From Carcharhinus amblyrhynchos (Eukaryota): 64,000 nucleotides of DNA. The stretch is from positions 66,402,001-66,466,000 of the forward strand of contig OZ336885.1 in the NCBI GenBank assembly GCA_965287045.1. The letters are read 5' to 3'. The translations under genes and the position numbers were made by a program. Under the pieces are notes generated by a model, which was not told where the DNA came from, did no database searches, and was given only the letters and a program-made list of their open reading frames with translations. Shown here in pieces: positions 282-34,911 of the stretch (position 1 is its first letter; every line of letters begins with the position of its first letter).

Positions 282-317
282 AAACACAAGTATTGAAAAA
301 GAAACTTCAAGATTTAG
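282..317 (+). CDS. Butyrophilin-like gene, coiled-coil micro-exon (36 nt, phase 1-1), xTQVLKKKLQDL
   Basis: Acceptor ttttttttcag| and donor |gtgaga. Length is a multiple of 3, the frame is open with a heptad-like peptide, and it joins the downstream micro-exons in frame. Confidence 0.65.
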
Positions 318-1156
318 GTGAGAAGTGTATTATTGATCATCAAACCACACTGGTACAAATAATAATTCATGAATGTAAATGATGGATTCATCTATTCAAG
401 GGATTGAGAAAGGAATTCTGTCTATCAGAGGTGTTACATACGGGCCCTATCAGAATGCAAAGTGGCAAACAGGTGTACATTTTTGGCGTATCCGTCTTAG
501 AAATAGTAGATGTGCACATTGATTAAAGAAAACAAGAAGAGGCCTGACTGAAAATGTATGAAATCAGTGTATTCGGGAGAAAATTTTGGCTCAAAAAACC
601 AAGAACACCTTCCCCACATTTCAAAACAAAAACCATCCTGATTAATCCTTTACATTTACTGAAGAGGAAATAGAGGCGACTCAATGTTCGTAAAATATAC
701 CTCTGATGACGCAGTACTTCTTCAGTGCAGTACTGATGCCTCACTCCTTGTTAATGTTCCGAGGAGCTGGAGTTTCCAAGCAAAACATTCAGAAAAAAAA
801 TAAAATGAGCCGCAGGGAGGCATTGTAAGCAAATATGCAACAAAACAAATGCGCGACATTCGTGTAAAGGGAACACGTTGATTTCAATGAATACATTAGA
901 ATGACCAAAACTGAGAAATTGAGGGACTAGAGGGTGCATCGGAATATAATTAAGAAGAAAAGGATAAATTCTAAGATGAAATAAGCAGTGCACAATGCAG
1001 AAGATTGGATATCTTACAGGGCACAACTTAAAAACAATGTTTGAGCGGTTTCAATACAACTGAGAGGCAGAGCGGCAAAATTAGAGGCAACATAAAATAA
1101 ACAATGGCTGTGTGCTTAGCTTTTGCTGAAAAGGTGAAAGCTACTAATTGTAGCTT

Positions 1157-1255
1157 CATAAGAACATAAGAAATAGGAGCAGGAGTAGGCTATCCAGCCC
1201 TTCGAGCCTGCCCCGCCATTCAATAAGATCATGGCTGATCTGTCGCTGCTCAGTT
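1157..1255 (-). mobile_element. CR1 LINE 3' tail fragment (young family)
   Basis: (CATAAGAA)n tail and sequence nearly identical to the 3' ends of the CR1 copies at 8234, 16120 and 20296. Confidence 0.85.
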
Positions 1256-2404
1256 GCATTCCAGAAATTGCCAACAGCAACAAAGGAATAAAATTCTTAT
1301 CCATAAGTAAACCATGTTGATTGGTTAGTATGTTGGCTCAGATGAGTGGAGACGTTGATACAGATAATGAAGCACGGAACAATTGACCTCCCAGTTTTTT
1401 TGTTTCAACTTTTAACCAGGCAAGGTATTGGTCTGCAGGAGACACCAGGGAATTCTCTGAGCCTTACCTTGTCTACCCTCCCTGTGACACAGTACCGACA
1501 GCAATGTGAGTTATTTTAAAATGCCTTTGGAAGCTCAGTTTGGGACAATTAGCGATCTGCCTATCTGTGTTCCCATTGTGCAACCCACCTCCCAATTCCT
1601 CTCTTAAATTCACGTTAAATTGATAATCTTGCACCTTCCACTCTTGGGACACATGTTTCGTGATATTTTACTATGTACTGCTTTTATTTCTCTTCAGGTG
1701 ACGTTTTCTGTTAATTATTGCTACTGAGCTCACCCCTGTCAGAAGAACTGCAAAACACTAACTGACAGAAATTGCGATCCTACATCTAAACTCACTTGTC
1801 ACTCCAAAATACTTAATCTATTCTGTCTGCTTCCAAGTCTGTTCACACCTTTCCAATAACGCCATTGCTGAACCCAAAGAAAATATGTCGGCAGCCCCCT
1901 CCCCGTCCCCCTATCCCCAGTGCCGTATTGTTTCTTATCAAAAACATTGGCACACATAATCCGTCCAAAAGCCACTCAAGAGAGAACTTGAAACAGTCAT
2001 GTCAAGCTAAAAACTACGACTAGGTCATTGTGCCGTCAGTGATCTGTGTGAAGTTGGCTACATTGACGAAACATTGTTGTGAAGAAAGACAATCATTCTT
2101 TCCACAACGGAAATAGCGTTAATATACACTCACTCAAATATAAATATTAATGATGCATACATCTGTGTGCTGGACTGATTTATGGAATTGAAACCTTAAT
2201 AACAAAGCACCCTGATTATGTCCTGTTTGCAAATTCCCTGACGATCGATCAGTTTAGCAAATTACCATGGATACTGAAAAAGAAATATGTTGCTCTATTT
2301 TTTCTCCTGGTTCTTCAGCGTTACAAATGTCGAATAGCAACGAAAAACATTAGAAATTAATTGTCCAGCAGTACTAATCTTCCCTGGTCGATTGTACTGG
2401 ACTG

Positions 2405-2735
2405 AGAATCATAGAATCACAGAATCTACACCGCAGAAGGAAACCATTCTGTCCATCAGGTCTGCACTGACAACAAGTCCACCCAGGCCCTATCCTGATC
2501 ATCCCATTCATTTACCCTGTACCTCCTGACACTAAGGGACAATTTAGCATGACCAATCAATCTAATCCGCACATATTCGGGCTGAGGGAGGAAGCCTGAG
2601 CAGCCAGAGGAAACTCGCGCAGACATGGGGACAAGGTGAAGACTCTGCATAGACAGTGAGCCAAGCCGGGAATCGAATCCAGGTCCCTGGCACTGGGAGG
2701 CAGCAGTGCTAACCATTGTGTCATCGTGCCGCCCC
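2405..2735 (-). mobile_element. tRNA-derived V-domain SINE (HE1-like) with CR1-type tail
   Basis: On the - strand: A/B-box head (..cagtgccagggacctggattcgattcc), V-domain core and (TCTATGAT)n-like tail. Paralogous to the copies at 23097, 33025 and 61598. Confidence 0.85.
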
Positions 2736-4004
2736 AATGATCGAACATAAGTGATTCAAACGTTAACTTCGGAAGGTTCCAACAGTTTTATGCTGATTAT
2801 TGCACCTGACAGAAATGGACGAAACAAAATCACTTATATATCTAAAGTTAATACTCTAATATTGTCACGACTCCATGCACTGTACTGTTCCACCCGGCGA
2901 ATCACCCACACAGCACCATCGCCCCACCACTCCAAACCAAACCCCAGTCGCCAGCCTAAACAACACACCACAATTCTGCTAGTGGCCAACACGTCCCTCT
3001 GGAACAATATTCCGCCACACTTGTTTGTGCCTTTGGTCCAAGCCGGGACTCCTGCACACCAAGCACTCCGTACATGACCCAACAAAGCTGAAAGTACTCC
3101 CACAGGACAACTAACCAAGCCCCTTCCTCCTCCCACTTCAGACTGATCGAAACACACGGCAAAATCCGCCCTCCCTTCCTACTCCACTGGTCCCACGCAC
3201 TGCTTTCAACAATCTGTCAATAAGTTCCTATATCTCCCCACTATTCCACGTCAGTTCTGAATCCCCCCTCCCTCATGTGGGATACGTTGTCTTTCTGCAA
3301 TCCGATACACAGACTCTCCCACCTGTTCAACCCCATCTTCCACTGGATCTGAGCCAGACCTCCCTCCTGGACAATTCACGCCCAATAGGCTCAAACACCG
3401 CCCACCACACCGCCTTCCAGCCGACCATCCTCTTCCATTCTAACACAATTCTGTTCCAAACCTCTTGCAGCAAAATACCCCAGCCGCCCTCAGACTGACA
3501 TGCTGTCCTTTGTGTTTTCCCCCAGGTTCGCCACGGATATCGGAAATACTGGTCATTGGAACGTGTCTTCTCCCTTTAAGTTGCCATTTTAAACTTCTCC
3601 GTCAGAGAGGTCAGTCCTGTAACACTGGGGTTTCCTGCCATTTGTGCATCATATTTGAACTTTGGCGATGCAGCCTGCGACACCAGTCGTTGTTCCTGTT
3701 TCTCCCAGAATGAATGAGAATTGTTGGGTAAGAGGGGGTTTTGCAACCTCAACGTGCGTTATTTCATTACAAGTGATAATCCGTCTGAAAGTGTCACTGC
3801 GAGTAAGTGATTGGCCTCAATGAATCCTATGTTTTCATTTTTATTAACTTAGTTGCACTTGCCAATAAATATATCACTATACTGTTTGTATTTCCAAAGA
3901 AATTCGCATGAATGTGTAACAGATTGAAAAGCAGCAATCTGCTTCCAGTGCACAATGAGACATTTTTTTTCCATTGTAACAATGCTGGTTCCGTGTTCCG
4001 ACAG

Positions 4005-4031
4005 AAGAAGATCTGAAAAGGAAAGGGAAAG
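4005..4031 (+). CDS. Butyrophilin-like gene, micro-exon (27 nt, phase 1-1), EEDLKRKGK
   Basis: ccgtgttccgacag|AAGAAGATCTGAAAAGGAAAGGGAAAG|gtgagt: consensus donor and a symmetric 27-nt exon. Confidence 0.7.
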
Positions 4032-6947
4032 GTGAGTTCTTCAAAAACACGTTGTTTCTTTTTTTCAACTACACATCCTATTGTGTGATATTGATTGGGT
4101 CTTTATGCGTGCCTTTAGCAATACCATGCACTGCCTTATCATTAACAATAACCGCAGTGTACATAAGTCACTTTTCAGATTCATCCAACTTCAAAACACA
4201 TAGAGGATGCGATAGGTATTTAGAGCCAACAAATGCATTGGTTGTACATACCCACGGCATGTGGGTACCCTGAATGATCCCATATGCTGTGCATACAGCA
4301 TACTCGAAGACATGACTCCATACACTTGGTTCAGCATAATGCTCGAATATTGCCTGCAGCTCTATTCACATTTTATCTAATTACCACAAACGTCGGATCG
4401 CTTTGCAAAATTCTTATTTCCGTATAACAGTTAAATACGAAGCAATGAGTGTGGACAATGCTCGTCTCCATGTAATTTGTTCGATCCAGCAATTTATGTA
4501 GTTCTCAGTTCTGGTCACCATGCTCTTTACTGGAATTGCAAAAAGATTACTTGGCACAGTGATAGACTCCATGTTACTTTTGGGGGTAAAGTTATGAGGA
4601 ACATGGGGAAAGGGAATTTGCATGAATGATACAAAAATCAGACAATTTGTAAGCTACGCAGAAATATTTGGAGTGGGTTACTGTTATGTAGACTAGGTAT
4701 GATAAGGCACCTGGATGAAAAAATTATGTCGTCGATGGTGAAGGTAAGTTAAAAACGTGAGTCCACAAAATTCTCAGACACGTCGTATTCAGTTCTTGGC
4801 ACCGCGCAAACAAAAGCCTCAGAAACATGGACTGTGACATAACATCTAACCTGCGAGGCTCAGTAATTTTAATGTACTGTACAATTTTACACCACACTTC
4901 AATCTATGCCTATGACATGTCAAAGTTCATTACCATAAAACTCAGATAGAAATGCATTGTGAAAGTGTAATAACTAGGATGCGTGTTTTTCATAAAAAAA
5001 TGTGTAATCCAGACGTAGATTCAAACAGACACACTAACTTTTATTGAAAGGTGCTTTCGGCTCTTCAGATTATCAAACTCAAAGTAAAACAGATGCCTCT
5101 GAAATACCATAACGAGGTCAACATCAAATAAGATAATCAGCTCTAAAAGCAACCACGCTAAACACATATGACAGAACATTCCCACCTTGTCCGTTTCTAC
5201 AATATTTCTAATTTCTTCATTTTTGATCTAACCACCCTGCTTTTGGAAAAGTAAAATACACCTCCGGTTGTTTTCGATAAATATTTTATATCTTTGACTC
5301 ATGGATTTCTAAGAGCTTATCACAACAAAGACAAGGGGAATAACAGCTGCCTGTATGGAGGAGAATAAGAAAAATAATGGAAATTTTTAACATTTCAACA
5401 ACGCACCAGATCCGCCTATTTGGGTACGGAGCACGATTTAAAAGCAAAACTTTTAAGGGGATAGCACAGACAGGGGAACAAATGATGATCTCTACAACCG
5501 GATGCCAACTGCTGTTCGATATCGAGGGACTGGGGAAGTGTTGGAGAATTGATGGGCAATTTTGGAATGGGCCAAACAGGCAGGATTAAGAAAGTGTTTC
5601 AGCAGAGCGCATTGACTGCATGTTGAATTAATAGGAGAACTTCAACGTCAATGGTTAATGCATGACGTCCTGCATAAATTCGTACACCGGACAAACAAGA
5701 AAACAATTGCACCTTGACATTGTGAGCAATGTGAACAGAGGGTTTTCTTCAATGGCCACTATCGCCAGTACCCGCGGCAGATTGTGTTTTTCTTCGAGGT
5801 ACAAATAATGCTGTTGATAAGGTAAGGTATTATTATGAATGCCGAAATCACCTGTCATCGGCATTCGTGTGGTTCTCCAGTCATATCTTAGATAACTGTG
5901 AGCCGTGGATACAACATATTGAGCGACAAAAGAAGAAGGTGTATTTTTACTTTTCACGCGGACGGTGGTTCGATGACGAATGCAGAAATTGAAAGTATTA
6001 ACGAATAATCAACTTGATTCATAAGTTTTGAAATATTTGTAAATAGTTAATTATCCTGCTAAGAAAGAGGTAGATCTGTTTGCGCATTGGCCGTTGCAGA
6101 GACTGAATTACACATTTGCGGAGGCTGGAATATTTAACCTCGAGGAACAAAGTATTTTAAATACATTGGCGAAGCGTAGAAAGCTGTGAAACATGAGCCC
6201 TTATGCGAGAGTTTTGAAAATGTTGAAACGCCACGTTCTTCCAAGTGGCCTCTTATTCTGTTGTATGATTGAATAATTATTTGATTGAAATATTGTTTTG
6301 ATCGTCTTTCAGAGAGAGAATTATATTTGAAAAAGTTGAAGGAATTGGGTGAGAAAGCAGCAATTGGTGGACATTTTGAAATGCCCTTGCCAATCTTCAT
6401 TGTGCATTGCAATTATTCAATGCAATTCAGTTTATTTTTTTTAAGCATTTGACGACAAACAAATACATGATTGAGCGTTGAATATAGGTTCAGAACAAAC
6501 AAAGATAATGTTCTTTCCATCTTAACGTTTCATATACTTTTAAGTTATTCTCAGATTTTTAGAGGATTGAAAGGCGATTTCATTCCAATATACTAAATTG
6601 TCACAGAGAAATACAAGGTAAATTCAGGAGGGTTGATTCCCCTGGTTGGAGCATAGCTGATGTTGGGAGCTTCATATCATAATGAACCATGCTACAAATT
6701 TTATTAATGAGGTGCAATCGCCGTAGGAATGAAAGGAGTATGGCTTCATTCAGAGGTGTGCAGGCCTCCGAGATACTCTACCCCAGAGAGCAGCTGCTGT
6801 TTCATTCTTGAATCATAATGTAAGTGCCACAGAATTTTACAGCATGAAAAGTGGTTCTAAATGCTGTTGTCTGCGCTTTGTACAAAACGGCACATATCTT
6901 TCAGTTCCATTTGCAAAACTTAGTCCGTAGCTTTAATTGGCAGGATT

Positions 6948-7955
6948 ACAAAGAACAAAGAACAAAGAGCAAAAACAGCCCGGGAAACAGGCCCTACGGC
7001 CCAACGAGCCCGCGCCGGCATTTTAACTCTACCAGTTCCCCCCTCCACCCATGACCCTTATCTATTGCTTTATGGCCATTCACATTGAGGGAAACTAATT
7101 TAGGGACAATTTATTACTGCCAATCAGCCTAATGGCACATCTTTGGGGTGTGGGAGGAAACCGGAGCACCGGAGAAAACCCGCGCAAGCACGGGGAGAAT
7201 GCGCAAACTCCCACAGACACTGGCCCAAATCCATGTGTCTGCACAGCAATCAGTGATAGTCACTGAGCTGTCGCCTTGCCTAGCATCTGGCCCAGTTTAA
7301 GCACACACTAACGACATGAAGCACTAGGCCAATCTCGAACACTCAAGAGCAGCCCACGTACGACCCATCACGTGTATGCCCCTTGTTGGACAACAAGGCG
7401 GACCGATTTATAACCTGTGAAAGAAAAGGGAAAAAACATTATTATCATACCAAATCCGTTTACCTTACCAGGGACGCCCCAATGCCAATGAACCTTATTT
7501 AAAACAATCTCCTGCATCCACCCATCCCCAACCCACTCATGTGCCTGTCTGAGTTACTCTTAAACAACTCTAGCGTGCTTGCCTCCACCACCTTACTTGG
7601 CAGAGCATTCCATACCCCCACTACCCTCTGTGTGAAAAACTCCCTCTAATATCTGTGTTATACCTCTCCCCCCTCACCTTAAGCCCACGGCCCCTCGTAC
7701 TGTGTGTCTGTAACATAGGAAATAGCTTACCTCCGTTTACGCTATCTATACCCTTCATAATCTTATATACCTCTATTAGATCCCCCCTCAGTCGCCGTCT
7801 TCCAAGGGAAAACAGCCCCAGTTTGTTCAATCTTTCCTCATAACCCAGTCCTTCCATACCAGGCAACATCCTGGTAAACCTCCTCGGCACTCTCTCCAGA
7901 GTCTCCACGTCCTTCCGGTAGTAAGGCGACCAGAACTAGGCGCAGTACTCTAAAT
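6948..7955 (-). mobile_element. 5'-truncated CR1 LINE (ORF2 C-terminus and long 3' UTR containing a V-SINE-like segment)
   Basis: ORF 7621-7908 reads LERVPRRFTRMLPGMEGLGYEERLNKLGLFSL...RGDLIEVYKIM. (AAAGAAC)n tail at about 6950. V-domain-like sequence at about 7090-7230. Confidence 0.85.
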
Positions 7956-7959
7956 GCTT

Positions 7960-8230
7960 CACATTGCAGCCTCACAGTGTTAGGGACCAGGAGTCAATTA
8001 CAAACTCATGTGGACGTTGTAATTTCTTCTGCTTCTGTGTGGCTTACCTCATGATGCTTCAATTGCTTCAGATTTCAAGGTGTAGCTTAGGTTGAACTAC
8101 TTCTTCTAAGTGCTCAAAGTTGTATAAGCTGGTGGATTAGTTATGTTAACTGTGCTGTGTTATGTGCATAACATAACATGGGCAGGACTTGGAGTGGCCA
8201 CTCTTTCAGAGAGCCGGTGCAGAATCGGTG
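7960..8230 (+). mobile_element. Degraded V-domain SINE between two CR1 insertions
   Basis: Head remnant gcctcacagtgttagggaccagg and an eroded V-domain. Confidence 0.5.
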
Positions 8231-8233
8231 TTC

Positions 8234-8803
8234 CATAAGAACATAAGAACATAAGAAATAGGAGCAGGAGTAGGCCATCTAGCCCTTCGAGCCTGCCCCG
8301 CCATTCAATAAGATCATGGCTGATCTGTCGTGGCTCAGTTCCACTTTCCCGCCCTCTCCCCATAACCCTTAATCCCCTCTCTTATCAAAAACCCATCAAC
8401 CCGCTTCTTAAAAATATTTAGCGAGGTAGCCTCCACCACTTCAACGGGCAGAGAATTCCAGAGATTCACCACCCTTTGAGTGAAGAAGTTCCTCCTCAAC
8501 TCCGTTCTAAACCGCCTCCCCTTTATCTTGAGGCTGTGCCCCCTAGTCCTACTGTCTTTTTTGAGCGGGAAGAGTCTCTCCACCTCTATCCTATCCATCC
8601 CATTCATCATCTTATGCGTCTCAATGAGATCTCCCCTCATTCTTCTAAACTCTAGCGAGTACAAGCCTAGTTTATTCAGCCTCTCCTCATAGCTCAACCC
8701 CCTCAACTCCGGTATCAGCCTAGTAAACCTCCTCTGCACTCCCTCCAGGGCCAAAATATCCTTGCGCAGGTGCGGCGCCCAAAACTGCACACAGTACTCC
8801 AGC
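8234..8803 (-). mobile_element. 5'-truncated young CR1 LINE
   Basis: ORF 8335-8805 reads LEYCVQFWAPHLRKDILALEGVQRRFTRLIP...RVVNLWNSLP, followed by a (CATAAGAA)n tail. Confidence 0.95.
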
Positions 8804-8899
8804 AATTTCTGTATTGTAAGTATGCTATCGTTCTATTGTATGCTGTAAACTTTGAGATTGTTATGTATGGACTTCTTAAGTATTGTATGGGCTGATTTC

Positions 8900-10030: not shown

Positions 10031-10224
10031 AGATTAATACGACCACAGTTCATTAGAACAAAATAAGGATTTTCCAGTTCAAACGTGCTCACTGGAAATA
10101 ACGCATTCACCCAGTGGCATCACAGTTTCAACCCCCACCATCTCCCTCTCCCCTTCCAGGCTCCATAACTCCCACCCCCAACAGTATGCATAGATTCGCT
10201 ACCTCTCATTCTAACTCGCACACT

Positions 10225-10239
10225 CACACAGACACACTG

Positions 10240-10272
<33 letters not shown>
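10225..10272. repeat. (CA)n microsatellite
   Basis: Directly visible CA run. Confidence 0.9.
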
Positions 10273-10274
<2 letters not shown>

Positions 10275-13200
10275 TGTTCCTTAAAAGCTGCAACTTATAA
10301 TCGCAGCATTGAAGTATTTTCCCTTACATGGGTTCAGGTACATTTAATTAATAGATTTACGTATTTCCTTGCCAAGATTATGTTGAAGACTTTTGTTAAA
10401 TGCAAACGGTCATCACAGTCCATATTAATGCAAAAATCACACGTTCTGAGTGTTTTAATTTCTATGCCACGGCCCATTAGTAAGGCATTCTAAGAGTTGT
10501 ATTATATTTAATAATTACCAATTGAAATATTTGAACAACGATGAAAGGATTCCAATACAGAGTGCCGTAACCCTTTTATTTCAATTATCACAGTCACTGT
10601 GACAAAAAAATGCCAACTGTCTTCTTGCGAAGTGAATAGTTTATTTGGATTTCATTGGCCTGCTTTTGCCACTTTAAGGCGAAAGCCCAAATAGTAAAAC
10701 AGGTATGTAAACCGAGTGTCTAGCATACTGTCGCTAAGTAAGTTTTGAACATTTCTAATGTATTTCTGGGCAACACAAATCCAGAAGGCTTCCCTTGAGT
10801 GCAATTGGGAATCATCCAAATGAAGGTGGAAATGAGCAGCAGCGACTGAATATGGCTCTATTGTGTTGCGTTGAATGCTGAATATAAGCGGGCATTTGAT
10901 AAAATATTTTCTCCAGCAGTTGAAGAAATATTGTTACATGTGGAGTCAGAACGCGAATTTGGGAAGTTAAGAATTCAATTAGTTTGCTCAAGGATGATGT
11001 CAGGAAGCATACTTCACAAAAATGGTTCCTAAATTTTGCAGCTAACCAAAAGGTTGATTGATTAATTGCACATGGATTGACAGGTTTGGTTTGTAATTTG
11101 AGTTGGCTGTTAAGTAATCAATTCGAGCACTTGAAACGTAGCTGAGCAATGCTGAAAACACCACGGAATGGTAAAGTAGTACAAAGAGTTAGAATTGTGT
11201 CCTAGCCTGACGATATGTGTTTTCAAAGGCAATTGCAGGTACATTCCAATGTAAAACTTGACGTCTAACAATGGTTTTGTCGAGGTTTCGTAGAAAACTC
11301 ACTGCTAAATGACGCCCGTTTAGAAAATTATATTCCATTGACAGAGCCGCATGATTCAATCCATTGGGAACGTACCATAAATCAACTCGAGTCCATACCC
11401 AATGTTTTTTAAAGTTGTATCAATAATCCCAAATCTATCCGCTTTTATTCCTTTTAAGTATGGGATTGTCCTGTGACTCAAAATTATGACTTCTTAGTCG
11501 ATAAAATGTCATTTTTCTATTGATGCAATTGGGAAAATCATGAAATTTTATCCTCATTCCAGGTGGGATATCCATTGACCTTGAACTGCCTGAAAGCATA
11601 GAAGTAGAATACTTCAGAATTATAAAGTAACAGCATGCAGGGTCATGCATTGTCACAGTAAATTTGGATTTGGACGTTGAATTTCTCTGATTCGTTTCCA
11701 ACAAATAATGAAAAGTCTTCCTACTCTTATAGAGGAACAGTTACGACAAAAAACGATTGGTAAGATTCCACAAAGTATATTTATCATTTCCTCTTATTTT
11801 CTAATGAATGCGTTGATGCAAAATGATTTGTTTAATTACCTGAAAGCTTGAATGATACTGGATTTTGTGTAAACGTACAAGCAGCTTAAAGGAACTGAAA
11901 GATTTATAGAGTTCAGAACACCAAACTCTACACGGCCTGTAATACAGTTTTCCAAAATCATATTTATCACTTCATACGTTATTACAAATCTCAGGGTTAG
12001 ATTTTGACCGCTTTTGAATTGAGTGGAAAAAAAGACACAAGCAATATTCATTTGTGGACAGAAATTGCGGGAAATTTCACAGTGAAGCATTTAGGTACAG
12101 ACAATTTCCCTGAAGAGTAAAATGTTCTAGCATCACTTGAAATGCGTTACACAAAACTTGGTACTCCAGAAACACACACAAAAAAAACAACCACACCTAA
12201 CAATACCTCTGGCTTGAGACGACTCCAGCGGTCAAATTCAATCCAGAGCTTGTTTCGTTGGCCCATCATACACTGTGAATGGAATCACCTACTTGAGTGT
12301 ATCGAGCATTATTTATTCGCAAATTAAAACTGCGGAAACACCCTCACCAACCCCTCTCCTCCAGACGACACAATTATCCATCATGCTAATTCTTATTGAT
12401 CCATGCGTTTGCAAAATATCACGAAGCAAAATTATTTTTGTTCTTATTTACTACAAGAAAAAGAATCATCGTTTTATAACAATGTCCAGTGTGGAAATAA
12501 TGCACCTCGGAATGTAGTATGAAAGAAAGTTAACGTGCACTGGATGTCAGATCTTGAAGTCACCGCAGATTTCAGAGTAAAGTCGAAGGTATCAATGCTG
12601 GAACCACGTGACAACATGAAAAGTAGGGAGACAATGACATTTTGAGTCTCACTGAGATGGCAGTGTGGAGCACTGAGTACAAGCGAACAATGAGTGAAAA
12701 GTTCGGACGGGAACTGCGACCTGTCAGAGCTGCAGATGTCATACAAATAAGGAAGGCTGGAACGCAATTCGAAAAGTTGTGTCAATCGATCATTTGATAC
12801 CACTATTGTAGCATGACGTGCAGTTATAACAGCACAACTTTAGAGAAAGGCATTCAGATGTTACTTGGGGAGTCTTAAGTAATAAATGTCACTGACGTGT
12901 TACACCTTCACTTAGTTAAGCTCTGAGGGTCCGCATATCAACAGTATGTGCTATAATCGCATTAGCAACCAGTACAATTTGACTGTAATTTCAAATTTGC
13001 ATTCTACATGTAGAACTTGAAAACATCAATGCAAAGTGCCGTAAGTAACGCGTGTCGGAATAGCGGGAGGGGTGGACTTGATATTATCACTGGACGAGGA
13101 TTCCAGATGTCCAGAGATTTCAAGTAAATTGTTACGTTTTGAAGGTGAAATCTGCCACACTGATAGTGAGCATGGAACCAATATTTATCATTGATCAAGC

Positions 13201-13855: not shown

Positions 13856-14799
13856 CAGTCTAGCTTACGTGTCTGGGTGACACAATTTGTACATAATATA
13901 AATAGCGAACGTTGTGAGGTATTCTAAAATTCCAGGGATTGATTTGTCAGGGTAAAATGGAGGACAAACCTGGGTACAGTGCACTAAATGTTAACTAATT
14001 CACCAGAACACTTTACGTGGAGGTATCGAAATTTATGACTCTAATATTGAGAGGAGGATGTGCTTCTGTGTTTAATATGTTTTACCCAATCTGCATGAAA
14101 ATCAGAAAGATGTACGTAGTTCCCTAATTTTGTCTCATGTATATCACCCTGACTACTACAGAGGGTTCGAAACGTTTTTCATCAAGACATTTGGGTTCAA
14201 CATCTGTATATTTCTTCTCTGGCTATCTATCCAAGATATTCAGATAACCAAAAAACGCTCAAAAAGCTTTAAGTTACACCTAATTCATATTTTGAGCAAA
14301 TTTGGTCCTGCATCAGGTTACAAGTTCTGTTTGTTTTTTTTTAGCTGTCACGCACGACGAGCAAATAATTAATACTTACAGTGCAGGTCGAATGAAATTT
14401 TGTTCTTCCTCCTTTAGAAAAAGATTTGGAAGAAACAATCTTGGGTAATTAAACAAAACACGGCTGATGCATTTCTTTTTCAAAGACTAAACTTTAATTT
14501 TATGTGAAGTATAGACAGAATAGTTAATCTAGTCTGCTGTACACCGGCACCTAGTAATTTGTCTGTGGTTTCTTCATTAGAACTCCAGAAGCTGAAGTAC
14601 GCGGGCAAAAATAAAGGTTAGTTTAAGATGATCAGTAAAACACAGAGTTAAGTGAAGAAGAGGATCAAACAAGTCAGCTTCTCGAGCATGCTCCATCATT
14701 AAACATCAAAGTACTGATCATTATACATTCGAATCGTTTCAAAATCCTGGTCCTTTCAATTAATAAGAAACTTAACTATATAAACCACTTGTCTGTTGT

Positions 14800-15310: not shown

Positions 15311-15779
15311 AGTACGTTCAATGATGCATTATCCGAGTGAATTTTGAAACAGCGGCAATATGAGAATGGGTACTTGGGACCTTTATTAACTTATTGTCCA
15401 CGGACACACAGTGGAAGAGTGCACACGGGAAATTTCCCAGTTTCACCTCCAGATATCCAGTGGGACTTGATGCATCCAACAACATGAAAAAAGCTGCTCT
15501 TGGATTAACCATTGCTCGGTAAGGAGTTCACAACTGAGCAGAACTGATTTTGAGTTTCCTAAAATGGACTCGAACTACCTGACTTGAGTGATGGCTGCTT
15601 TTCATAATTATTTTCAGACGTCGACACGTTAATGTTCTTTATCCTTTGATTCAATGTTCTCACTCCTAATTGATGCTCATATAACCAGGCGGCATGGCGA
15701 TACACTAGTTGGCACAGTCCACGATAAGAATACTCACAACACCAGGTTAAAGTTTATCAGGTTTATTTGAAAGCAAACG

Positions 15780-15816
15780 CCACTAGCTTTCAGAGCGCTG
15801 CTCCTTCGTCAGGTGA
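15780..15816 (-). ncRNA. Minimal type I hammerhead ribozyme motif in a Penelope pseudo-LTR (core intact)
   Basis: The - strand reads tcac CTGACGA a ggagc-agc-gctct GAAA gc TA gtgg: CUGANGA and GAAA core, stem II, CUA cleavage triplet and stem I cac/gtg. Confidence 0.75.
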
Positions 15817-16119: not shown

Positions 16120-18517
16120 ACATAAGCACATAAGAAATAGGAGCAGGAGTAGGCCATCTAGCCCTTCGAGCCTGCCCCGCCATTCAATAAGATCATGGCT
16201 GATCTGTCGCTGCTCAGTTCCACTTTCCCGCCCTCTCCCCATAACCCTTAATCCCCTCTCTTATCAAAAACCCATCAACCCGCGTCTTAAAAATATTTAG
16301 CGAGGTAGCCTCCACCACTTCAACGGGCAGAGAATTCCAGAGATTCACCACCCTTTGAGTGAAGAAGTTCCTCCTCAACTCCGTTCTAAACCGCCCCCCT
16401 TTTATCTTGAGGCTGTGCCCCCTAGTCCTACTGTCTTTTTTGAGCGGGAAGAGTCTCTCCACCTCTATCCTATCCATCCCATTCATCATCTTATACGACT
16501 CAGTGAGATCTCCCCTCATTCTTCTAAACTCTAACGAGTACAAGCCTAGTTTATTCAGCCTCTCCTCATAGCTCAACCCCCTCAACTCCGGTATCAGCCT
16601 AGTAAACCTCTTCTGCACTCCCTCCAAGGCCAAAATATCTTTGCGCAGGTGCGGCGCCCAAAACTGCACACAGTACTCCAGCTGCGGCCTCATCAATGCC
16701 CTATACAGCTGCAGCAAGACCTCCCTACTTTTATATTCAATCCCCCTCGCTATGAAGGCCAGATCCCATTCGCCTTCCTGACCACCTGCTGCACCTGCAA
16801 GCTGGGTTTTTGCGACTCATGCACAAGGACCCCGAGGTCCCTCTGCACCGTCGCCTGCTGCAGTTTTTCGCCCCGTAAGTATTAGTCCTTCCTACCATTC
16901 TTCCTACCAAAGTGGACCACCTCACACTTGCCAACATTAAATTCCATTTGCCATTTCCTGGCCCATTCGCCCAGCCTATCTAGATCCTTCTGCAGACTCT
17001 CCACACCCTCCGCACAATTTGCCGTTCCCCGAATCTTGGTGTCATCAGCAAATTTCGACACCCTACACTCGGTTCCCTCCTCCAGATCATCTATATAAAT
17101 GGTAAAAAGCTGAGGCCCCAGCACCGACCCCTGGGGCACTCCACTAGTCACCATCCGCCAATCCGAATAGCACCCCTTGACCCCCACTCTCTGCCTCCTA
17201 TTTGACAACCAATCCTCTATCCACGCTAACACCCTACCCCCAACTCCATGTCCCTCGACCTTCTGCAATAACCTCTTGTGAGGTACTTTGTCAAACGCCT
17301 TCTGAAAATCTAGAAAGACCACATCCACCGGCTCTCCTCTACCCACCGCCCTAGACACATCCTCATTGAACTCCAGTAAATTTGTCAGACACGACTTCCC
17401 TTTAATGAAACCGTGCTGCGTCTGCTCTATCAAGCAATTCCCTTCAAGATGCCTCGCAATTTCCTCCTTAATGACAGATTCTTACATTTTACCTACCACA
17501 GACGTTAAACTAACCGGCCTATAATTCCCCGCCTTTTGCCTGGCACCCTTCTTAAACAACGGCGTAACATTAGCCATTTTCCAATCTTCCGGCACTTCCC
17601 CGGAATCCAGTGACGTCTGGAAAATAACCACCAAGGCATCGACTATCACCTCCGCCATTTCTTTCAGAACCCTCGGATGCATTCCATCCGGTCCTGGGGA
17701 CTTGTCCACAATCAGCCCCTCCAGTCTGTCGAGCACCGCCTCTCTAGTAACAGTAATGTCATTAAGACCCTCCAGTCCTACCAGCTTTCCATCGCTAACA
17801 CCCGGCAAATTATTCACGTCCTCCTCCGTGAAGACAGAAACAAAAAAGTTATTCAATACCTTAGCCATATCCCCATCCCCTACCACTAGGTCCCCTTTCT
17901 CATCCTCTAAAGGACCAACATTCACCCTAGCCAGCCTCTTCCTTTTTATATATTTATAAAAACTCTTGCTATCCTTTTTTATATTAAGCGCTAGCCCAGC
18001 TTCATAGTTTCTCCTACCCTTCTTTATCAACTTCTTTGTCAATCTTTGTTGACATTTAAACCTCTCCCAATCCTCTTCTCGCCCACTACTCTTAGCTACT
18101 CTAAATTCCTCCGCTTTTAATTTAACACTTTCCTTCACCCCCTTCGTTATCCACGGCTTATTACCTCTACTCCTACTATCCTTTTTGACCGTCGGAATAA
18201 ATTTCTGCTGAGCACCAAGAAAGATCTCCTTAAAGATCCTCCACTGCTCCTCAACAGACCCTTCCTCCAACGCGCTCCCCCAGTCCACATTCGCCAATTC
18301 TTCTCTCATCCTACCGTACTCCCCTCTATTCAAACAAAGGACGCGTGTCCGAGAACCCACTTTCTCCTCCTTCATCTGCGCCAGAAACTCCACCATACAA
18401 TGATCACTCTCCCCAAGAGGATCCTTCACCACAAGGTCCCTAATTCTACCCGCCTCATTACATAGCACCAGATCCAAGATAGCTCGCTCCCTCGTCGGCT
18501 CCAACACACACTGCTCT
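16120..18517 (-). mobile_element. Young CR1 LINE, 2.4 kb, 5'-truncated within the endonuclease C-terminus, ORF2 inactivated
   Basis: Motifs [49 protein letters not shown] and KFADDT. Two in-frame TAA stops (17482, 16882) and a 1-nt deletion near 16765 relative to the 20296 copy. Confidence 0.97.
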
Positions 18518-19636
18518 ATCGTGTGTTGTGAAGGCCGCCTTAGAGAACGTTTACCCGAAGATCAGAGGCCGAAGGCCCGTGACTGCTGAAGTGTTCGCCA
18601 ACAGGAAGAGAATAATCTTGCCTGGTGATTGTCGATCGGTGTTCATTCATCCGTGTCGTAGCGTCTGCATGGTCTCCCCAATGTAACATGCCTTGGGACA
18701 TCCTTTCCTGCAGCGTATCAGGTAGGCAATGTTGGCCGAGTTGCAAGACTATGTGCCGTGTATCTCATGGATGGTATTCTCACATGAGATGATGGCATCC
18801 GTGTCGATGATCTGGCATGTCTTGCAGAGGTTGCTGTGACACAGTTGTGTGGTGTGGTGGTGTTCTCCTGAAGGCTGGGTGGTTTGCTGTGGACGGTGTT
18901 CTGTTTGAGGTTGTGTGGTTGTTCGAAGGCAAAAAGTGGGGTGTGAGGATCGTCTTGACGAGATGTTCGTCTTCATCAATGACGTTTTGAAGACTCCAGA
19001 GAAGATGTCGTGGCTTCTCAGTTACGGGGAAGTACTGGGCGACGAAGGGTCCTCTGTCCACTGTGTCCCATGATGTCTTCTGAGGATGTCAGTGCGATCT
19101 TTCGATGTAACACGTCGGAACTGTTGATTGATTAGTGGAATGCCATACCTTGCTCTTATGATAGCATCTTTCAGCTTCTGGAGGTGTCTGTTGTAATCCT
19201 CCTCATCTGAGCAGATCCTGTGTATATGGAGGGCTTGTCCATAGGGGATAGTTTCTTTAACGTGTTTAGGGTGGAAGCTGGAGAAGTGGAGCATCGTGAG
19301 GTTATCCGTGGGCTTGTGGTACAGTGAGATGCTGAAGTTACCGTCCTTAATGGAGATGCGTGTGTCCAAGAATGCAACGGATTCCAGAGAGTAGTCCATG
19401 GTGAGTCTAATGGCGGGATGGAACTTGTTGATGTCATCATACAGTTGTTTCAGTGATTGTTCACCATGAGTCCAAAGGAAGAAAATGTCATCGATATGTC
19501 TAGTGTAATGCATCGGTTGAAGGTCCTGTGCAGTGAAGAAATCTTGTTCGAGCCTATGCTTGAAGATACACTTATCCGTATTCTGTAAACTGAGTGTGTG
19601 CCTACATATGCCCTTTTTGTGATCAGAACTCCCCAC

Positions 19637-19673
19637 TCGCCTGACGAAGGAGCAGCACTCCGAAAGCGAGTGG
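19637..19673 (+). ncRNA. Minimal hammerhead motif in the inverted pseudo-LTR (cleavage-site U mutated)
   Basis: tcgc CTGACGA a ggag-cagca-ctcc GAAA gc GA gtgg. CUA is changed to CGA relative to the other copy. Confidence 0.65.
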
Positions 19674-19767
19674 TATTTGCTACCAAATAAACTTGTTGAA
19701 CTTTAACCTGGCGTTATGAGACTTCTTACTGTGTTTATCCCAGTCCAACGCCAACATCTCTACATCA

Positions 19768-20295: not shown

Positions 20296-21278
20296 AGAAC
20301 ATAAGAAATAGGAACAGGAGTAGGCCATCTAGCCCTTCGAGCCTGCCCCGCCATTCAATAAGATCATGGCTGATCTGTCGTGGCTCAGTTCCACATTCCC
20401 GCCCTCTCCCCATAACCCTTAATCCCCTCCCTTATCAAAAACCCATCAACCCGCGTCTTTAAAATATTTGGCGAGGTAGCCTCCACCACTTCAACGGGCA
20501 GAGAATTCCAGAGATTCACCACCCTTTGAGTGAAGAAGTTCCTCCTCAACTCCGTTATACACCGCCCCCCCCCCCCTTTATCTTGAGGCTGTGCCCCCTA
20601 GTCCTACTATCCTTTCTGAGCGGGAAGGGTCTCTCCACCTCTATCCTATCCATCCCATTCATCATCTTATACGTCTTAATGAGATCTCCCCTCATTCTCC
20701 TAAACTCTAACGAGTACAAGCCTAATTTATTCAGCCTCTCCTCATAGCTCAACCCCCTCAACTCCGGTATCAGCCTAGTAAACCTCCTCTGCACTCCCTC
20801 CAAGGCCAAAATATCCTTGCGTAAGTACGGCGCCCAAAACTGCACACAGTACTCCAGCTGCGGCCTCACCAATGCCCTATACAGCCGCAGCAAGACCTCC
20901 CTACTTTTATATTCAATCCCCCTCACTACGAAGGCCAGCATCCCATTCGCCTTCCTGACCACCTGCTGCACCAGCAAGCTGGGTTTTTGCGACTCATGCA
21001 CAAGGACCCCGAGGTCCCTCTGCACCGTCGCCTGCTGCAGTTTTTCGCCACGTTAAGTAATAATCCTTCCTACCATTATTCCTACCAAAGTGGACCACCT
21101 CACACTTGCCAATATTAAATTCCATTTGCCATTTCCTGGCCCATTCGCCCAGCCTATCTAGAGCCTTCTGCAGACTCTCCACACCCTCCGCACAATTTGC
21201 CGTTCCACCAATCTTGGTGTCATCAGCAAATTTCGACACCCTACACTCGGTTCCCTCCTCCAGATCATCTATATAAAT
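20296..21278 (-). mobile_element. 5'-truncated young CR1 LINE
   Basis: SKFADDTKIGG...LEYCVQFWAPYLRKD. Near-identical to 16120-17100, with frameshifts. Confidence 0.95.
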
Positions 21279-22984
21279 CTCAATCGGAGCCTTGACTAAT
21301 AAAACTTATTAAAGGAACCAACTGAATTGTCAGAATGTGTTAGTGAGTGACTGAGTCACTGCGTGAGTAATGGTGTGCTAATGGAGGAACAGTGAGAAGA
21401 CACCTGCATGCAAATCATATGACGCAGAAGTTACTGACATTCAACAAAATGCATCGTTGATGAACTTCGGATTCAAGAGTCGTGAGTCACAACTGTGAGA
21501 GACGGACTAATTGTGCTTTTGCCGTCCACTTCAGCGAATGGCAAAATGAAGTTGCACTGAATTAAATGGGAAAGAGAAACTGGCAAGGAATACCAGAGAT
21601 AACTGAGTGGATACAGCTTGTTTTCAATGACTGGCCTTCGCTGCAAATCAGCCCTAAACTGTCTTGAGGATGGCATCCTCAAAATTGCATGAGACAATGT
21701 ATTCCATGTTTCCACTCCTGACGGAAACATTAACTTGCTCACTGTCACATACTCTACAATAACTTCCAGACAATCATTTGCATCTCACCAATCTCGATAC
21801 CATACCATAGTCCCCGTATGTTTCTAAACGTGTAATTTTTTTCTCTCAAACGTGCGAAAAATGTCTCCCAATGCTTCATAGAGTAACGCATTGCACATTC
21901 TGACCATCTTCTGTTAATCCTTTCTTCTGAGTTCCCGCTGGTGTTGATACAATATAACTCATGTTCAAATGCGTTCGTCCTGGACTCCTAAACAACTGGA
22001 CGTTATGTCTTTTCATTTATTTCCCCTCAGCATGTGGGTTACAAAAACGTGCTTGTCTCCAAGAATGACTCTTGGATCCCAATTCTTCGACATAACTAAT
22101 CGAGTACCATGACAATGTTTCGGCTGTTACCATAGCTAATAATTCTAGACCAGGAGTGTCTCCAACGTTCCAAAGGCACCTCCTTGATTCCCATCCCGTT
22201 GTGATAATCCAAAGCCGGAGCCTCATGTTGAGACGCTGGGACATTACACACTGCAATACGGGAGCAGACCCCATTTCCGATATTAAAACCGTTGGCATAT
22301 GCAGTTTAAAACGTGTGCCTGGAACGCAGCTGGACGGCAGTGGAATGGAAATGGCAGATCAAAGAAAGTGTAATTAAATTCAGCTGTAGAAAGTATATCA
22401 TGCTTGATTGCCTGTATTGCAGTTGCAAAACTCTTGATATTTAAAACATATAATTCATATCGGGCAGACAATGGCAGTGGGTTATGCACAATGAGACGTT
22501 TCTCCATATTGTATGCTTGGAGAGCATTAGAGAATGACATTTCCACCACTTCACCTCTGCAGCCGCTGCCCCATGGTCCTCAAACCATTGGCCAGGACAT
22601 TTCAAAATCCCAGTCTTCAAAGCTCGCTCTGAGACAATACTTAGCAAGTGGAAAACAACAAATTGGAGTGCAACAAAGAACCTCTTATGTTCAATTATAT
22701 CTACACTATCAAACGCAGCTGAAATTCGAATGGTGTATAGTAGCTGCCACCAACACTTTCTTATTTGAACCAAACATCCATGTTTGCAGATGCACAGGCC
22801 CAAGATTGGAAGTGTGGGCTCAAGGAAATGGAAATCTGTATGGTTCATCTAATTTGCTGAACGCCCCTCGGAAAGTCCTACATTGGCCACGAGAACAGGA
22901 GAATAAAGTGAGATGTTGTTTGTTTGAATTGCATCAATTTAGGTTCTGACAGATTACTTTTTTTTCTATTGATGTCCATCTCAG

Positions 22985-23011
22985 CAGTTAGTGCCCGTTC
23001 CAGACTCCTGG
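22985..23011 (+). CDS. Butyrophilin-like gene, micro-exon (27 nt, phase 1-1), AVSARSRLL
   Basis: T-rich tract, then ccatctcag|CAGTTAGT...CTCCTGG|gtaagt with a perfect donor. The CAGCAG acceptor also allows a 24-nt variant. Confidence 0.6.
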
Positions 23012-27696: not shown

Positions 27697-27732
27697 AACT
27701 CGAGAGTAAGCTTCAAGATGCAAGTGATGAAG
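27697..27732 (+). CDS. Butyrophilin-like gene, micro-exon (36 nt, phase 1-1), ELESKLQDASDE
   Basis: ctgtccctttcag| ... |gtaaga. Heptad-like peptide that shares KLQD (cttcaagat) with exon 282-317. Confidence 0.72.
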
Positions 27733-29910: not shown

Positions 29911-30529
29911 TTTGGCCCGACGACTATAATCACAATCACAACAATAACTCTCTTCTTAACTCCCACACAGGTTGTGTGGATCCCGCCAAAGGTGCGACAA
30001 TTTTCCGTTTGGTTACAGGTATAAGGTGCCACTGCCTTTTAGTCATGGAGATAGACTGCTTCAAACCTTAAAATAAGCAGCGTTTGGTTATGTGGAGGAT
30101 ATTGTTCAGGCTGGGATATCAATAATTTGCCATTTTAAGATGTTTCCTCGCTTTGTGTCATTGTTCAACACAGCAGACCTCATGCAACAGGCCCTCCAAT
30201 ATTACATTTATATCTAATAATCGTCAGAAGGTCCACTCTTGAATTTCAAAACCAAACGCCAAATTATGAGTATTCTCGACTTCAGTCTAACATCTGAATT
30301 ATACCTAATTCAGTCGCAATCTGGGAACAACACAATTTGATAACTGTGATCTGGATTGTCCTGTTCTGATGTGTTCAGCTACTACAAGCTGAATGACGAA
30401 GAATGTGGAGTTCTAAAATGTGGTTCATGAAGCCTAGTAAGTCTCCTGAAGTGGGACAAAAAATGATGGGGTTTTCGAAGTGTAGTCATTATGGCTCTCT
30501 CGAAAAATGTGCTTATTGACGTGCTTAAA

Positions 30530-32230: not shown

Positions 32231-33024
32231 AAAAATGTGTGCTGGTTAGTCATGTAAATACATGAAGGATGGTCACATAAAATGCAAAGGGATATTTTTC
32301 TTCATTCACCGTTCCTGGAATATAAGGCCGGTGAACCTGTATCCTCAATATAAATTCATGATTAATCAGCACAATTAAATTAACAAAAAACTCAGTTTCA
32401 TTAGTTATAGGAGTGGCACCACCTTTTTTTTTGCCTGGGATCCAGAAGCTTACGGGACAATGGAAGGAGATATCCGTTTTGTTCTAGTGCAGCGGAGGAA
32501 TTAGTCATGATACCATCAGTAGCAAGTACCCACCTCCCCCACCCCGCCCCCCCCCCCCCACCACACACACACACATACACCCCTAACCACTAGTGGTGTT
32601 CAATTAGCATTGATTTTGGAAATGGGAGGTGAAGATCAATACTGGAAAAGCCAAGACTGCATCAGGTTTTTCGATAAAAGCAGTCAAAAACCTGACCCAG
32701 ATCATTACTCCAAGTGGACTGTGCTTAGTTGATGATGGGTCAATCAGTGGTGTACTTAATTTTCCTCTGCCCCGACAATTTGTGCCCGCTGTGTTTATTT
32801 GGTAGGACATTGTTTGATGACGGTTGGTTTAAATCAAAACTCCTATAGATTTTTTTTGGGCAGCGATATTCTGAGGGATGTTTTACACTCTCGCTTAGCA
32901 GATCCGCGAGGACAGGTTGAAAAGGTCCTCGGTTTAATATTTTACTAAAAGACAGCATTCCCTCAGTGTTTCCACTGTATGGGGCTGGTCAAAGTTTGTA
33001 TCCTTTCAATCGAAAGCCCAGAAA

Positions 33025-33300
33025 GGTGGCACAGTGTTTTGCACTATTACCTCACTGCGCCTCGGGTAACTTCTGTGAAGAGATTGCACGTTTTCCCCGT
33101 GTCTGCGTGCTCCGGTTTCCTCCCACAGTCTAAATATATGCGGGTTAGGTTGATTGGCCACGATAAGTTAACCCTTAGTATCAAGGAAATTAGCAGCATA
33201 AATGTGGGGCGTTATAGAAATAGGGCATGGGTGGGATTGTGAACAGTGCGGTTCGATGGGCCGAATGACATCAATCGACACCGTAGGGATTCTATGATTC
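33025..33300 (+). mobile_element. V-domain SINE (HE1-like)
   Basis: Head ggtggcacagtg, V core ctccggtttcctcccacagtc and tail gggattctatgattc. Confidence 0.82.
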
Positions 33301-33464
33301 TTTGAACTCCATTAAGCTCAAGACCTTAAGTCCTAAATATGACAGAGCGATTTCCACTTACCGGCAGTTGAGTATTAATGCAATAGAGCTCTGATGTCAT
33401 AAGTATGGATTTTGGGGATGTTTCACTGTCCTCCCTTCTCTGCTATCCACATGACTATTACTAG

Positions 33465-33491
33465 AATGGAAAGTTCTAACGAAGCATAAAG
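33465..33491 (+). CDS. Butyrophilin-like gene, pre-B30.2 micro-exon (27 nt, phase 1-1), EWKVLTKHK
   Basis: ttactag| ... |gtaagc. An EWK-containing short exon directly before the B30.2 exon resembles the BTN3-type EWKxALFKP|ADVILDP junction. Confidence 0.78.
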
Positions 33492-34396
33492 GTAAGCCAT
33501 CATGAATTCTGCTTCACGGTCCGCAGCCCGCCCCACCCACCCCCTCCCCCCCCCCCACCCCGCCCTTTTACTTTCCTTAGGAGAGCCACATCTCCTTCTA
33601 AATGTCTCCAATCACTCCACTATCATCGACTACCCTTCCCCATTTCGTAATATCTGAGTCACTCCAGCAGTTCGTGGAAACGTAACGCGTGACGAGAGGT
33701 GAGGGAAAATTTGAAGTAATTGCAAAGTGTAGTTTTTTTAACCTCCTGGGGCTTTTTTGATGGTCTCCGAGAGGCACTTGCAGAGATGGGAAGATTCCTT
33801 GAACGAGTCAGTCAGACAAAGTAGCCAGCTGGGTGAAGCTCCAGAGGCGGAAACAACTTTTTGTCATAAATATGGTGCAGCACCAGCCGCTTGAGCCTCA
33901 GACGGGAGAATGTGGAGCTGTGTACTGTATGGGGCGGGTGGGGGTTGGGGCATCATTTTTCCAATTAACATTTAAATGTGCATGTGATGTTACTATTAAT
34001 GATTGGAAGCTCCTTATATTGGAAAAAGAGCCATGCAGCTAATGTAAACATCGTTGTATTTAATGCAGCGAATATATTTGAAAATGTTTGCAATGTTAAT
34101 TTTATCAATTTGGAGCTCCTAAAACAACAACAATGGAGATATTTGTATCTCCTTGCACTTCCTTTGATGAACGTTTGGAAATATTTTGCAAAGTTATACT
34201 GGATATTTTATGGATAAAGTATATGCGTTGTAATTTAGCAATGATTCAGGGGAAAGAACAAAAGGCGACAGGTCAAAGTACGTCAGAAATTTTGCACATT
34301 GTTACTGCTGCTTTAAAGGGGCTGATTATTTAATTTGTGAACTGTGCACAATTGCATGAATACAATGCTTACTTTTCTTCTCTCTTTGTTTACCAG

Positions 34397-34911
34397 TTCC
34401 GATTGTATTCGATAATGAAAATGCTGATCCACGGTTCGCCTTTGGCAAAGACAACAAAAGCGTCGGCTGGAATGACACAGTAGCAGCAAACAAGGAGCTA
34501 CAATTTGCGGACAGTTGGACAATCTGGGCAAGCGACGGTGTTCCTCATGGCAAGCAATACTGGGAGGTGTCAGCCAGCCCAGGGACAGTCTGGAGCGTAG
34601 GAGTCTCCCAGAATGTCCGACCTATGAACAGATGGAGCAGACCGTTTTCCAAGGACAGTTACTGGGCCCTGATGATGTGGAACATCGAAGGCAACAAGGA
34701 AAATGTAAGATCGCTGGGCACTTCAGTCTTGATGGCCCAACTGAGCAAACTGGGAGTCTACGTGGACAACAAGGAAGGACGGGTGTCCTTCTACAACCCG
34801 GAGAACGGAGCCCATGTGCATACCTTCAATGCCAAACTCACAGGCAAAGTTTACCCTGTCTTCAAACTCTGGGTCACCACGAGCCCTGATGGCACCTTAA
34901 CCCTAGTTTAG
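34397..34911 (+). CDS. Terminal exon encoding a B30.2 (PRY-SPRY) domain of a butyrophilin-like protein (TRIM-like less likely)
   Basis: Acceptor ctctttgtttaccag|, phase 1. Open frame VPIVFDNENADPRF...GKQYWEVS...WSVGV...YWAL...KLGVYVDNKEGRVSFYN...HTF...KVYPVF...LTLV*, with SPRY motifs YWEV, WxVGV, LGVYxD, VSFYN and YPxF. Confidence 0.92.

Follow-up and report, generated by a model that had tools for sequence, protein, structure and literature searches.

A roughly 900-kb array of exon-like segments of Carcharhinus amblyrhynchos likely encodes a long coiled-coil rod with a terminal B30.2 domain

The subject of this analysis is a stretch of 64,000 nucleotides (nt) of the Carcharhinus amblyrhynchos genome (2.92 Gb), positions 66,402,001-66,466,000 of OZ336885.1 (contig C16), referred to here as the window, and a putative gene whose 3' part it contains. 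An initial annotation described five micro-exons and a B30.2 exon in the window as the tail of a chondrichthyan butyrophilin-like (BTN-like) receptor. On the evidence of the sequence, these five segments are the tail end of an approximately 900-kb array of about 140 exon-like pieces of 21-36 bases. It is likely that some 140 exon-like segments of 21, 27 and 36 nt are spliced into a single gene, which encodes a predicted coiled-coil rod followed by a B30.2 domain and in which no immunoglobulin (Ig) domain was detected. Probably, the architecture is similar to that of butyrophilin and BG tails without the gene being a butyrophilin, and the gene likely belongs to a separate, undescribed family.

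Exons of the window

Each of the five segments named in the initial annotation (36, 27, 27, 36 and 27 nt, phase 1-1) is preceded by a pyrimidine tract and AG and is followed by a donor in which an exonic G precedes GT(A/G)AG. When joined by script, they keep the frame open into the B30.2 exon at 34397-34911, and thus their coordinates, lengths, splice sites and join to B30.2 are as had been described. Their splice scores rank 2, 4, 5, 15 and 46 among the 1,835 open phase-1 candidates of the plus strand of the window, while the top score among the 2,085 minus-strand candidates in the same scan is 17.0. The suggestion that more micro-exons may exist proved right not only upstream of the window but also within it: an exon profile trained only on micro-exons upstream of the window, and then applied to window candidates, gave four further segments (starting at 6313, 11733, 14418 and 14581) scores equal to or higher than those of several named exons. 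Hence, while all five named segments were located, the set is not complete and does not form a five-exon tail. Since the four additional exons between 4031 and 22985 score well, it is unlikely that the proposed 4031/22985 is the principal junction. The putative exons, all on the plus strand, and a candidate polyadenylation signal are as follows.

282..317, plus strand: rod exon of 36 nt, phase 1-1, named previously; splice score, array and profile
4005..4031, plus strand: rod exon of 27 nt, named previously; splice score and profile
6313..6348, plus strand: rod exon of 36 nt, overlooked previously; outscores all 89 background candidates on the profile, single copy
11733..11759, plus strand: rod exon of 27 nt, overlooked previously; splice score and profile
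14418..14444, plus strand: rod exon of 27 nt, overlooked previously; weaker donor, breaks the strict 36/27 alternation
14581..14616, plus strand: rod exon of 36 nt, overlooked previously; splice score and profile
22985..23011, plus strand: probable exon of 27 nt, named previously; good splice sites, poor rod profile
27697..27732, plus strand: rod exon of 36 nt, named previously; splice score and profile
33465..33491, plus strand: final 27-nt micro-exon ahead of B30.2, named previously; weak acceptor (0.3), weak profile support
34397..34911, plus strand: terminal coding exon, divergent B30.2/SPRY; Pfam SPRY E 1.7e-12, stop TAG at 34909-34911
35364..35369, plus strand: candidate polyadenylation signal, the first AATAAA past the stop; motif only

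Without 14418, the order of exons in the window is 36-27-36-27-36-27-36-27, followed by B30.2. The rod-profile score of 22985 is equalled by 26% of 93 background candidates. The exon at 33465 carries a W...K motif common to the skate and chimaera relatives, and the skate model ends W...K-V-P at the equivalent junction.

Several other candidates were rejected as exons. The segments 8749-8769, which arises from an antisense long interspersed nuclear element (LINE), and 15774-15812 are repeat-derived, with 53 and 27 copies, respectively, in 1.064 Mb (BLAST). Those at 29971, 10679, 28432 and 13014, either single-copy or weak, are poor matches to the rod.

Extent and composition of the upstream array

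We examined 1.2 Mb upstream of the window, which gives a total searched span of 1.26 Mb. Exons of the same type run on the plus strand to about -869 kb (about 65.53-66.40 Mb of C16), and about 130 more of them precede exon 282..317. Between -870 kb and the B30.2 exon, candidates of 27 nt number 62 on the plus strand vs. 10 on the minus strand, and those of 36 nt 66 vs. 12, whereas other lengths are represented by 4-24 candidates on the plus and 4-19 on the minus strand; those of 21 nt show no overall enrichment (19 vs. 15). Phase 1 is stop-free in 136 of the 147 candidates of 21, 27 or 36 nt, as compared with 67 and 83 for the other two frames. Scoring of splice sites together with composition, with training on the rods of relatives and an equal length bonus on both strands, identified 143 plus-strand vs. 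7 minus-strand segments at a threshold of 18, and 23 on the minus strand at a threshold of 16. The set picked at a threshold of 17 comprises 157 segments, 142 of which are of 21, 27 or 36 nt (1,440 codons; one repeat removed, 29971 still included). This excess by strand, length and phase is much greater than expected by chance and bears out the hidden symmetric micro-exons of the initial annotation. As it also held, there is a single B30.2 exon (34397-34911), the only one in 1.26 Mb, and it is the window that physically connects the array with this exon. No N gaps occur in the 1.064 Mb counted.

The style of exons shifts along the array, from a sparse run of 21-nt exons at its 5' end to runs of 27-nt exons in its middle. 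Near-identical 36-nt exon cassettes in tandem duplications of about 10 kb (window -448.6 to -420.0 kb) suggest a recent expansion. Past -901 kb, the strand of rod-like candidates switches (overlapping candidates included: 0 on the plus vs. 18 on the minus strand between -1,200 and -901 kb; 134 vs. 7 between -900 and +50 kb), and therefore the array stands head-to-head with a second one. The second array lies on the minus strand from about 65.50 Mb of C16 downward (from -901 kb to -1,175 kb or further), carries a series of 21-nt exons near -1,137 to -1,175 kb and may lead to the B30.2 at 63.74 Mb. No first exon shared by the two arrays was found, the best local score being 30 in a low-complexity sequence.

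Predicted coiled-coil rod

Hydrophobic residues occupy codons 2, 5 and 9 of the 36-nt exons (0.82-0.83) and partly codon 12 (0.42), codon 4 of the 27-nt exons (0.78) and codon 2 of the 21-nt exons. The values are thus 0.78-0.83 for the a positions and for the first d position. Because of these positions, a 36+27 pair, which encodes 21 residues, gives three heptads. The 36/27 alternation count is 82 vs. 65.9 in shuffled sets (p 0.003). In the register of the same exon set, cysteine is present at 23 of 193 d positions, at 3 of 193 a positions and at 5 of 858 positions elsewhere. The hydrophobic period of the catshark rod is 3.50. The a/d heptad register across micro-exons supports the coiled coil that the initial annotation had envisaged; the rod is predicted to comprise about 1,400 amino acids (aa), or about 200 heptads.

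Splicing evidence from relatives and sequence variation

As judged from comparison of the sequences, independent support for the splicing comes from relatives and not from this gene. The rod of the catshark RefSeq protein XP_038671249.1 maps in order onto 27-, 36-, 24- and 21-nt exons upstream of the B30.2 of a C9 paralogue. In this mapping of 38 segments, 28 of the 37 joins leave exactly one split-codon residue, as compared with 1/14, 1/23 and 2/21 exact joins in opposite-strand and shuffled controls; a small number of weak segments in the chain are probably spurious. The paralogous array (C9, 103.955-104.304 Mb, minus strand), orthologous to XP_038671249.1, is collinear with this single catshark protein over about 240 kb and extends more than 100 kb upstream of the catshark model start. 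The model is 5'-partial, because its residue 8 maps inside the continuing array. RefSeq isoforms rest on RNA-seq, and the isoforms annotated for the relatives in ray, catshark and chimaera are distinguished by in-frame blocks of 6, 7 and 9 aa, one of which is the W-bearing segment directly before B30.2.

Contigs of four sequence sets, X1-X4, were compared over positions 33600-34975. Those of X1 and X4 cross the acceptor into the intron and are therefore genomic, X3 spans only 34428-34895, inside the exon, and X2 gave short or paralogous pieces. Ten coding substitutions on the long X1, X3 and X4 contigs (paralogue rows dropped, 8 rows not included), a number too small for a selection test, comprise 5 silent, 5 missense and no nonsense changes; both indels fall outside the coding exon.

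The B30.2 domain and its relatives

The terminal exon matches Pfam SPRY, while PRY was not hit. Its nearest solved structures in PDB are those of TRIM58 (top) and BTN3A, and its AlphaFold model is all-beta, with modest confidence (pLDDT, the predicted local distance difference test, 59). In a HMMER alignment with the BTN3A3 chain carrying W-H-Y, residues W350-H351-Y352 of BTN3A align to D-S-W. In PMC7348870, H351 is described as a key phosphoantigen residue of the BTN3A pocket. The BTN3A-type phosphoantigen sensor residues are not kept here, with Ser at the position of H351.

In a tree of 58 rows (17 family, 8 BTN and 33 TRIM domains; NLR-B30.2 not included), all 17 family rows form one clade (support 100/100, stem 1.03), the sister of which is unplaced (30/73); the 8 BTN rows form no clade either. 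The phylogeny proposed as a check in the initial annotation has thus yielded a distinct chondrichthyan clade but no resolved grouping with BTN or TRIM, and contains no NLR rows. Close B30.2 paralogues, with clade-specific invariant residues in common (W94, N95 and R104 among them), are located on C16 (five, 38-58% identity) and C9 (two). Profile searches identified RefSeq models from catshark, electric ray, skate, basking, whale and epaulette sharks, and chimaera, labelled TRIM39-like, TRIM58, TRIM69-like, A33-like, BTN-like or nuclear-pore anchor-like. The initial annotation was right in assuming a chondrichthyan host. All 8 annotated relatives scanned with Pfam, including a 1,697-aa chimaera model, contain SPRY only. 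The genomes of chimaera and skate are more compact. A single-sequence search found no longer homologues at E 1e-20 (518 candidates), while a rod search with the catshark protein gave 2 matches among 7,992 candidates. The 9-residue W-bearing segment ahead of B30.2 occurs in shark BTNs too.

Searches for other domains and for the gene start

A BTN-ectodomain hidden Markov model (HMM; shark/rodent) gave a best E of 5.8 among 28,165 open reading frame (ORF) pieces and, in a further 200 kb, nothing at E 0.1; the 1.26-Mb span negative for Ig extends 330 kb past the point at which the array begins. Pfam found no Ig in the 115 of 274 plus-strand ORFs tested between -1,000 and -730 kb, namely those with two spaced cysteines and a tryptophan and without LINE words. 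Genome-wide, none of the 35 C2-set_3 matches (all 87 candidates scored) and none of the 58 BTN-IgV matches lies on C16; a genome-wide V-set search, in which 150 of 1,794 candidates were scored, is uninformative on C16. The Ig and transmembrane (TM) exons that the initial annotation placed upstream of the first base of the window were thus not found there: rod exons run on for about 870 kb, and no Ig match occurs in 1.26 Mb. A BTN-like receptor with a short juxtamembrane tail is not borne out by a B30.2 that forms its own clade and has Ser at H351, nor by the negative Ig searches.

Exons for RING/B-box or NACHT domains, named in the initial annotation as what might lie upstream in place of Ig and TM exons, were not found in this span either. 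The best E of a RING/B-box HMM among the 28,165 ORF pieces was 0.68; the same HMM hits 142 of 269 fetched proteins but 0 of 22 subfamily proteins. For NACHT, the search was by motif, with no NACHT HMM run, and the pattern G-x-x-G-x-GK[ST], which we take to be its Walker A signature, is absent from ORFs of at least 100 aa over 1.26 Mb. The span also contains two non-LINE ORFs of 476 and 518 aa.

Elsewhere in the genome, canonical BTN-like IgV and C2 exons are clustered, as compact genes, amid many B30.2 exons on C46 (0.65-2.08 Mb), C53 (0.58-1.78 Mb) and C9 (98.8 and 102.66 Mb). These are candidates for the real shark butyrophilins.

A hydrophobic 72-nt AG..GT segment, single-copy and located inside the array (window -574,059 to -573,988), combines an acceptor scoring 9.4 and a phase-1 donor with a hydrophobic core and an ATG at +3, and might serve as an alternative leader. 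We rejected it as a homologue of the skate N-terminus: the likeness is by eye, and the segment did not pass tests against background. Leader-like candidates number 5 on the plus vs. 4 on the minus strand, the segment being not above background; it is outside the top 6 of 22,488 ATG peptides against each of six leaders, and no second DNA copy of it was found in the genome. As to the location of the protein, we give the cytosol about an even chance, consider secretion clearly less probable, and membrane anchoring without Ig less probable still.

Proposed model and alternative explanations

In the reading that we prefer, the rod would dimerise in parallel and, if unbroken, would be about 200 nm long, as estimated from the textbook coiled-coil rise of 0.15 nm per residue. 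Paired B30.2 heads at its end would bind a partner, and the protein, much like a butyrophilin/BG tail that has become detached and enormously extended, might act in soluble form as a tether or scaffold (cf. the BG-derived zipper protein). The gene may have grown as exon-intron cassettes were duplicated in tandem; since each exon is phase 1-1, such duplication keeps the reading frame. Skipping of exons may tune the rod. A bolder version, which we regard as speculative and rather doubtful, is that an ancient family of near-megabase genes in chimaera, sharks and rays, hardly ever seen by annotation, encodes secreted, disulfide-stitched rods of 1,000-2,000 residues with a lineage-specific B30.2 head, their length and register being tuned by skipping among more than 100 micro-exons.

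Several observations weigh against the reading of one rod-plus-B30.2 gene without Ig. The first coding exon was not found: in the 32 kb that separate the arrays (-901 to -869 kb), none of the 15 ATG-to-donor candidates outside repeats stood out, and none is leader- or TM-like. No junction was seen among the contigs of X1-X4 over 33600-34975, which speak neither for nor against splicing. Judged by opposite-strand counts, some 7-20 exons in the picked set may be false. Exons are sparse over the 150 kb at the 5' end, and therefore the continuity of the array as one transcript is assumed. The 21-exon in-script chain peaks at a period of 3.55 with no power at exactly 3.5, and therefore exons must be missing from the set or wrongly included in it; the chimaera rod peaks at 3.70. 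The d positions behind the cysteine count were assigned from the same exon set as the count itself. Since the catshark model is 5'-partial, annotated relatives do not prove the absence of Ig, and the Ig HMM found only 2 of 5 unrelated control V-set loci, which means that a very divergent V domain could escape it.

The main product could possibly, though this is the less probable view, be secreted or anchored via a short hydrophobic exon, such as that at -574 kb, and form a disulfide-linked extracellular rod; this explanation shares much of its architecture with the preferred one, from which it departs in the location of the protein and perhaps in where the gene begins. The splice sites, ATG and hydrophobic core of the -574 kb segment, the hydrophobic starts of the skate, chimaera and epaulette-shark models and the strong enrichment of cysteine at d positions argue for it, while the background counts and single-copy state of that segment argue against it, and the hydrophobic starts of partial models may represent intron read-through. 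It is unlikely that the array comprises several tandem units, of which only the downstream part joins this B30.2 and the rest is a tail-less gene or is decaying. Such a division would agree with the low exon density, with gaps up to 39 kb in the picked set, with the change from 21-nt exons at the 5' end to 27-nt runs in mid-array, and with a truncated Scyliorhinus torazame model without B30.2. What speaks for one unit is the constancy of strand and phase across about 900 kb (136/147 open), the lack of a second B30.2, and the collinearity of the C9 paralogue with one catshark protein.

Still less probable is the butyrophilin-type receptor of the initial annotation, with IgV, IgC and TM exons that would be too divergent, missing from the assembly, or nested in a neighbour gene. 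Heptad micro-exons with one B30.2 exon do correspond to the BTN tail plan as outlined in PMC4046983, PMC8813856 and PMC12841164, the array opens with 21-nt exons as do the BG tails described in PMC5938342, shark BTNs share the W-bearing segment, and the Ig HMM missed 3 of the 5 control loci. Against this stand the negative Ig searches in 1.26 Mb, the gap-free assembly over the 1.064 Mb counted, the location of BTN-type IgV/C2 exons and canonical BTN genes on C46, C53 and C9 instead of C16, the lack of a clear TM exon and the absence of H351. A TRIM or NLR-B30.2 gene whose coiled coil has become unusually long is very improbable: the TRIM-type RefSeq names of several relatives, TRIM58 as the top PDB match and the unplaced sister of the clade would fit it, but the RING/B-box HMM hit neither the ORF pieces (best E 0.68) nor the subfamily proteins (0/22), and no Walker A motif was found in the ORFs searched.

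Neighbouring elements

Downstream of the gene, a single-exon ORF of a rhodopsin-family G protein-coupled receptor (57288-58214, minus strand; Pfam 7tm_1 E 3.3e-14) presumably resembles shark-expanded GPR139-like receptors. Introns in the window contain fragments of reverse transcriptase, presumably from LINEs, and one fragment that is presumably Penelope-like (7621-8832, 16214-18561, 20555-21305 on the minus strand and 19022-19702 on the minus strand).

Significance and comparison with known systems

No description of this family was found in the literature searched, subscription papers and supplements being outside its scope. If the preferred reading is correct, a multi-megabase shark gene cluster, with at least six B30.2 paralogues on C16 and two on C9, has been missed or mislabelled (TRIM, A33, 'nuclear-pore anchor') by annotation. 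One gene would unite a long BG-type micro-exon tail with a B30.2 head of the kind proposed as a separate BG partner, which bears on the evolution of the BTN/BG family, and its 36+27 three-heptad module would be a natural test of exon-level coiled-coil evolution and of micro-exon splicing in very long genes. Secreted, tuned rods, if real, would be extracellular fibres of a new class, with a role in recognition or in structure. The gene should not be listed among shark ligands of gamma-delta T cells, because canonical BTN genes are located elsewhere in the genome.

The class IV (PRY-SPRY) TRIM proteins also combine a coiled coil with a C-terminal B30.2. They differ from the shark gene, in which no RING or B-box was found and the coil is on more than 100 micro-exons. 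Guinea pig enterophilins, which are mammalian, are reportedly soluble proteins with an extended leucine zipper and B30.2 and no ectodomain, much shorter than the shark rod. An interaction of enterophilin-1 with SNX1 is mentioned in PMC13749957.

In butyrophilins, as in the shark gene, a heptad coiled coil is followed by a C-terminal B30.2. Butyrophilin tails are encoded on short phase-1 exons with one B30.2 exon. The accounts in PMC4046983, PMC8813856 and PMC12841164 define a butyrophilin by IgV, IgC, TM, few heptads and B30.2. By contrast, the shark gene encodes about 200 predicted heptads, has no detectable Ig or TM and no H351, and its B30.2 belongs to a separate long-stemmed clade.

The chicken BG tail offers the closest working model for the shark rod: in both, numerous phase-1 micro-exons, their first codons split, together encode a long coiled coil. 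In the alleles described in PMC5938342, the BG tail comprises 27-38 heptad repeats on 21-nt exons, and its length is reported to vary by exon number and splicing. BG proteins have IgV and TM, one-heptad exons of 21 nt and no B30.2, whereas the shark gene has mainly three-heptad pairs of 36+27 nt, about five times the length, and B30.2 at its end. A soluble zipper form of BG is reported to act on actin-myosin (PMC5938342, PMC4046983), and a separate 'orphan' B30.2 partner of BG has been hypothesised (PMC5938342).

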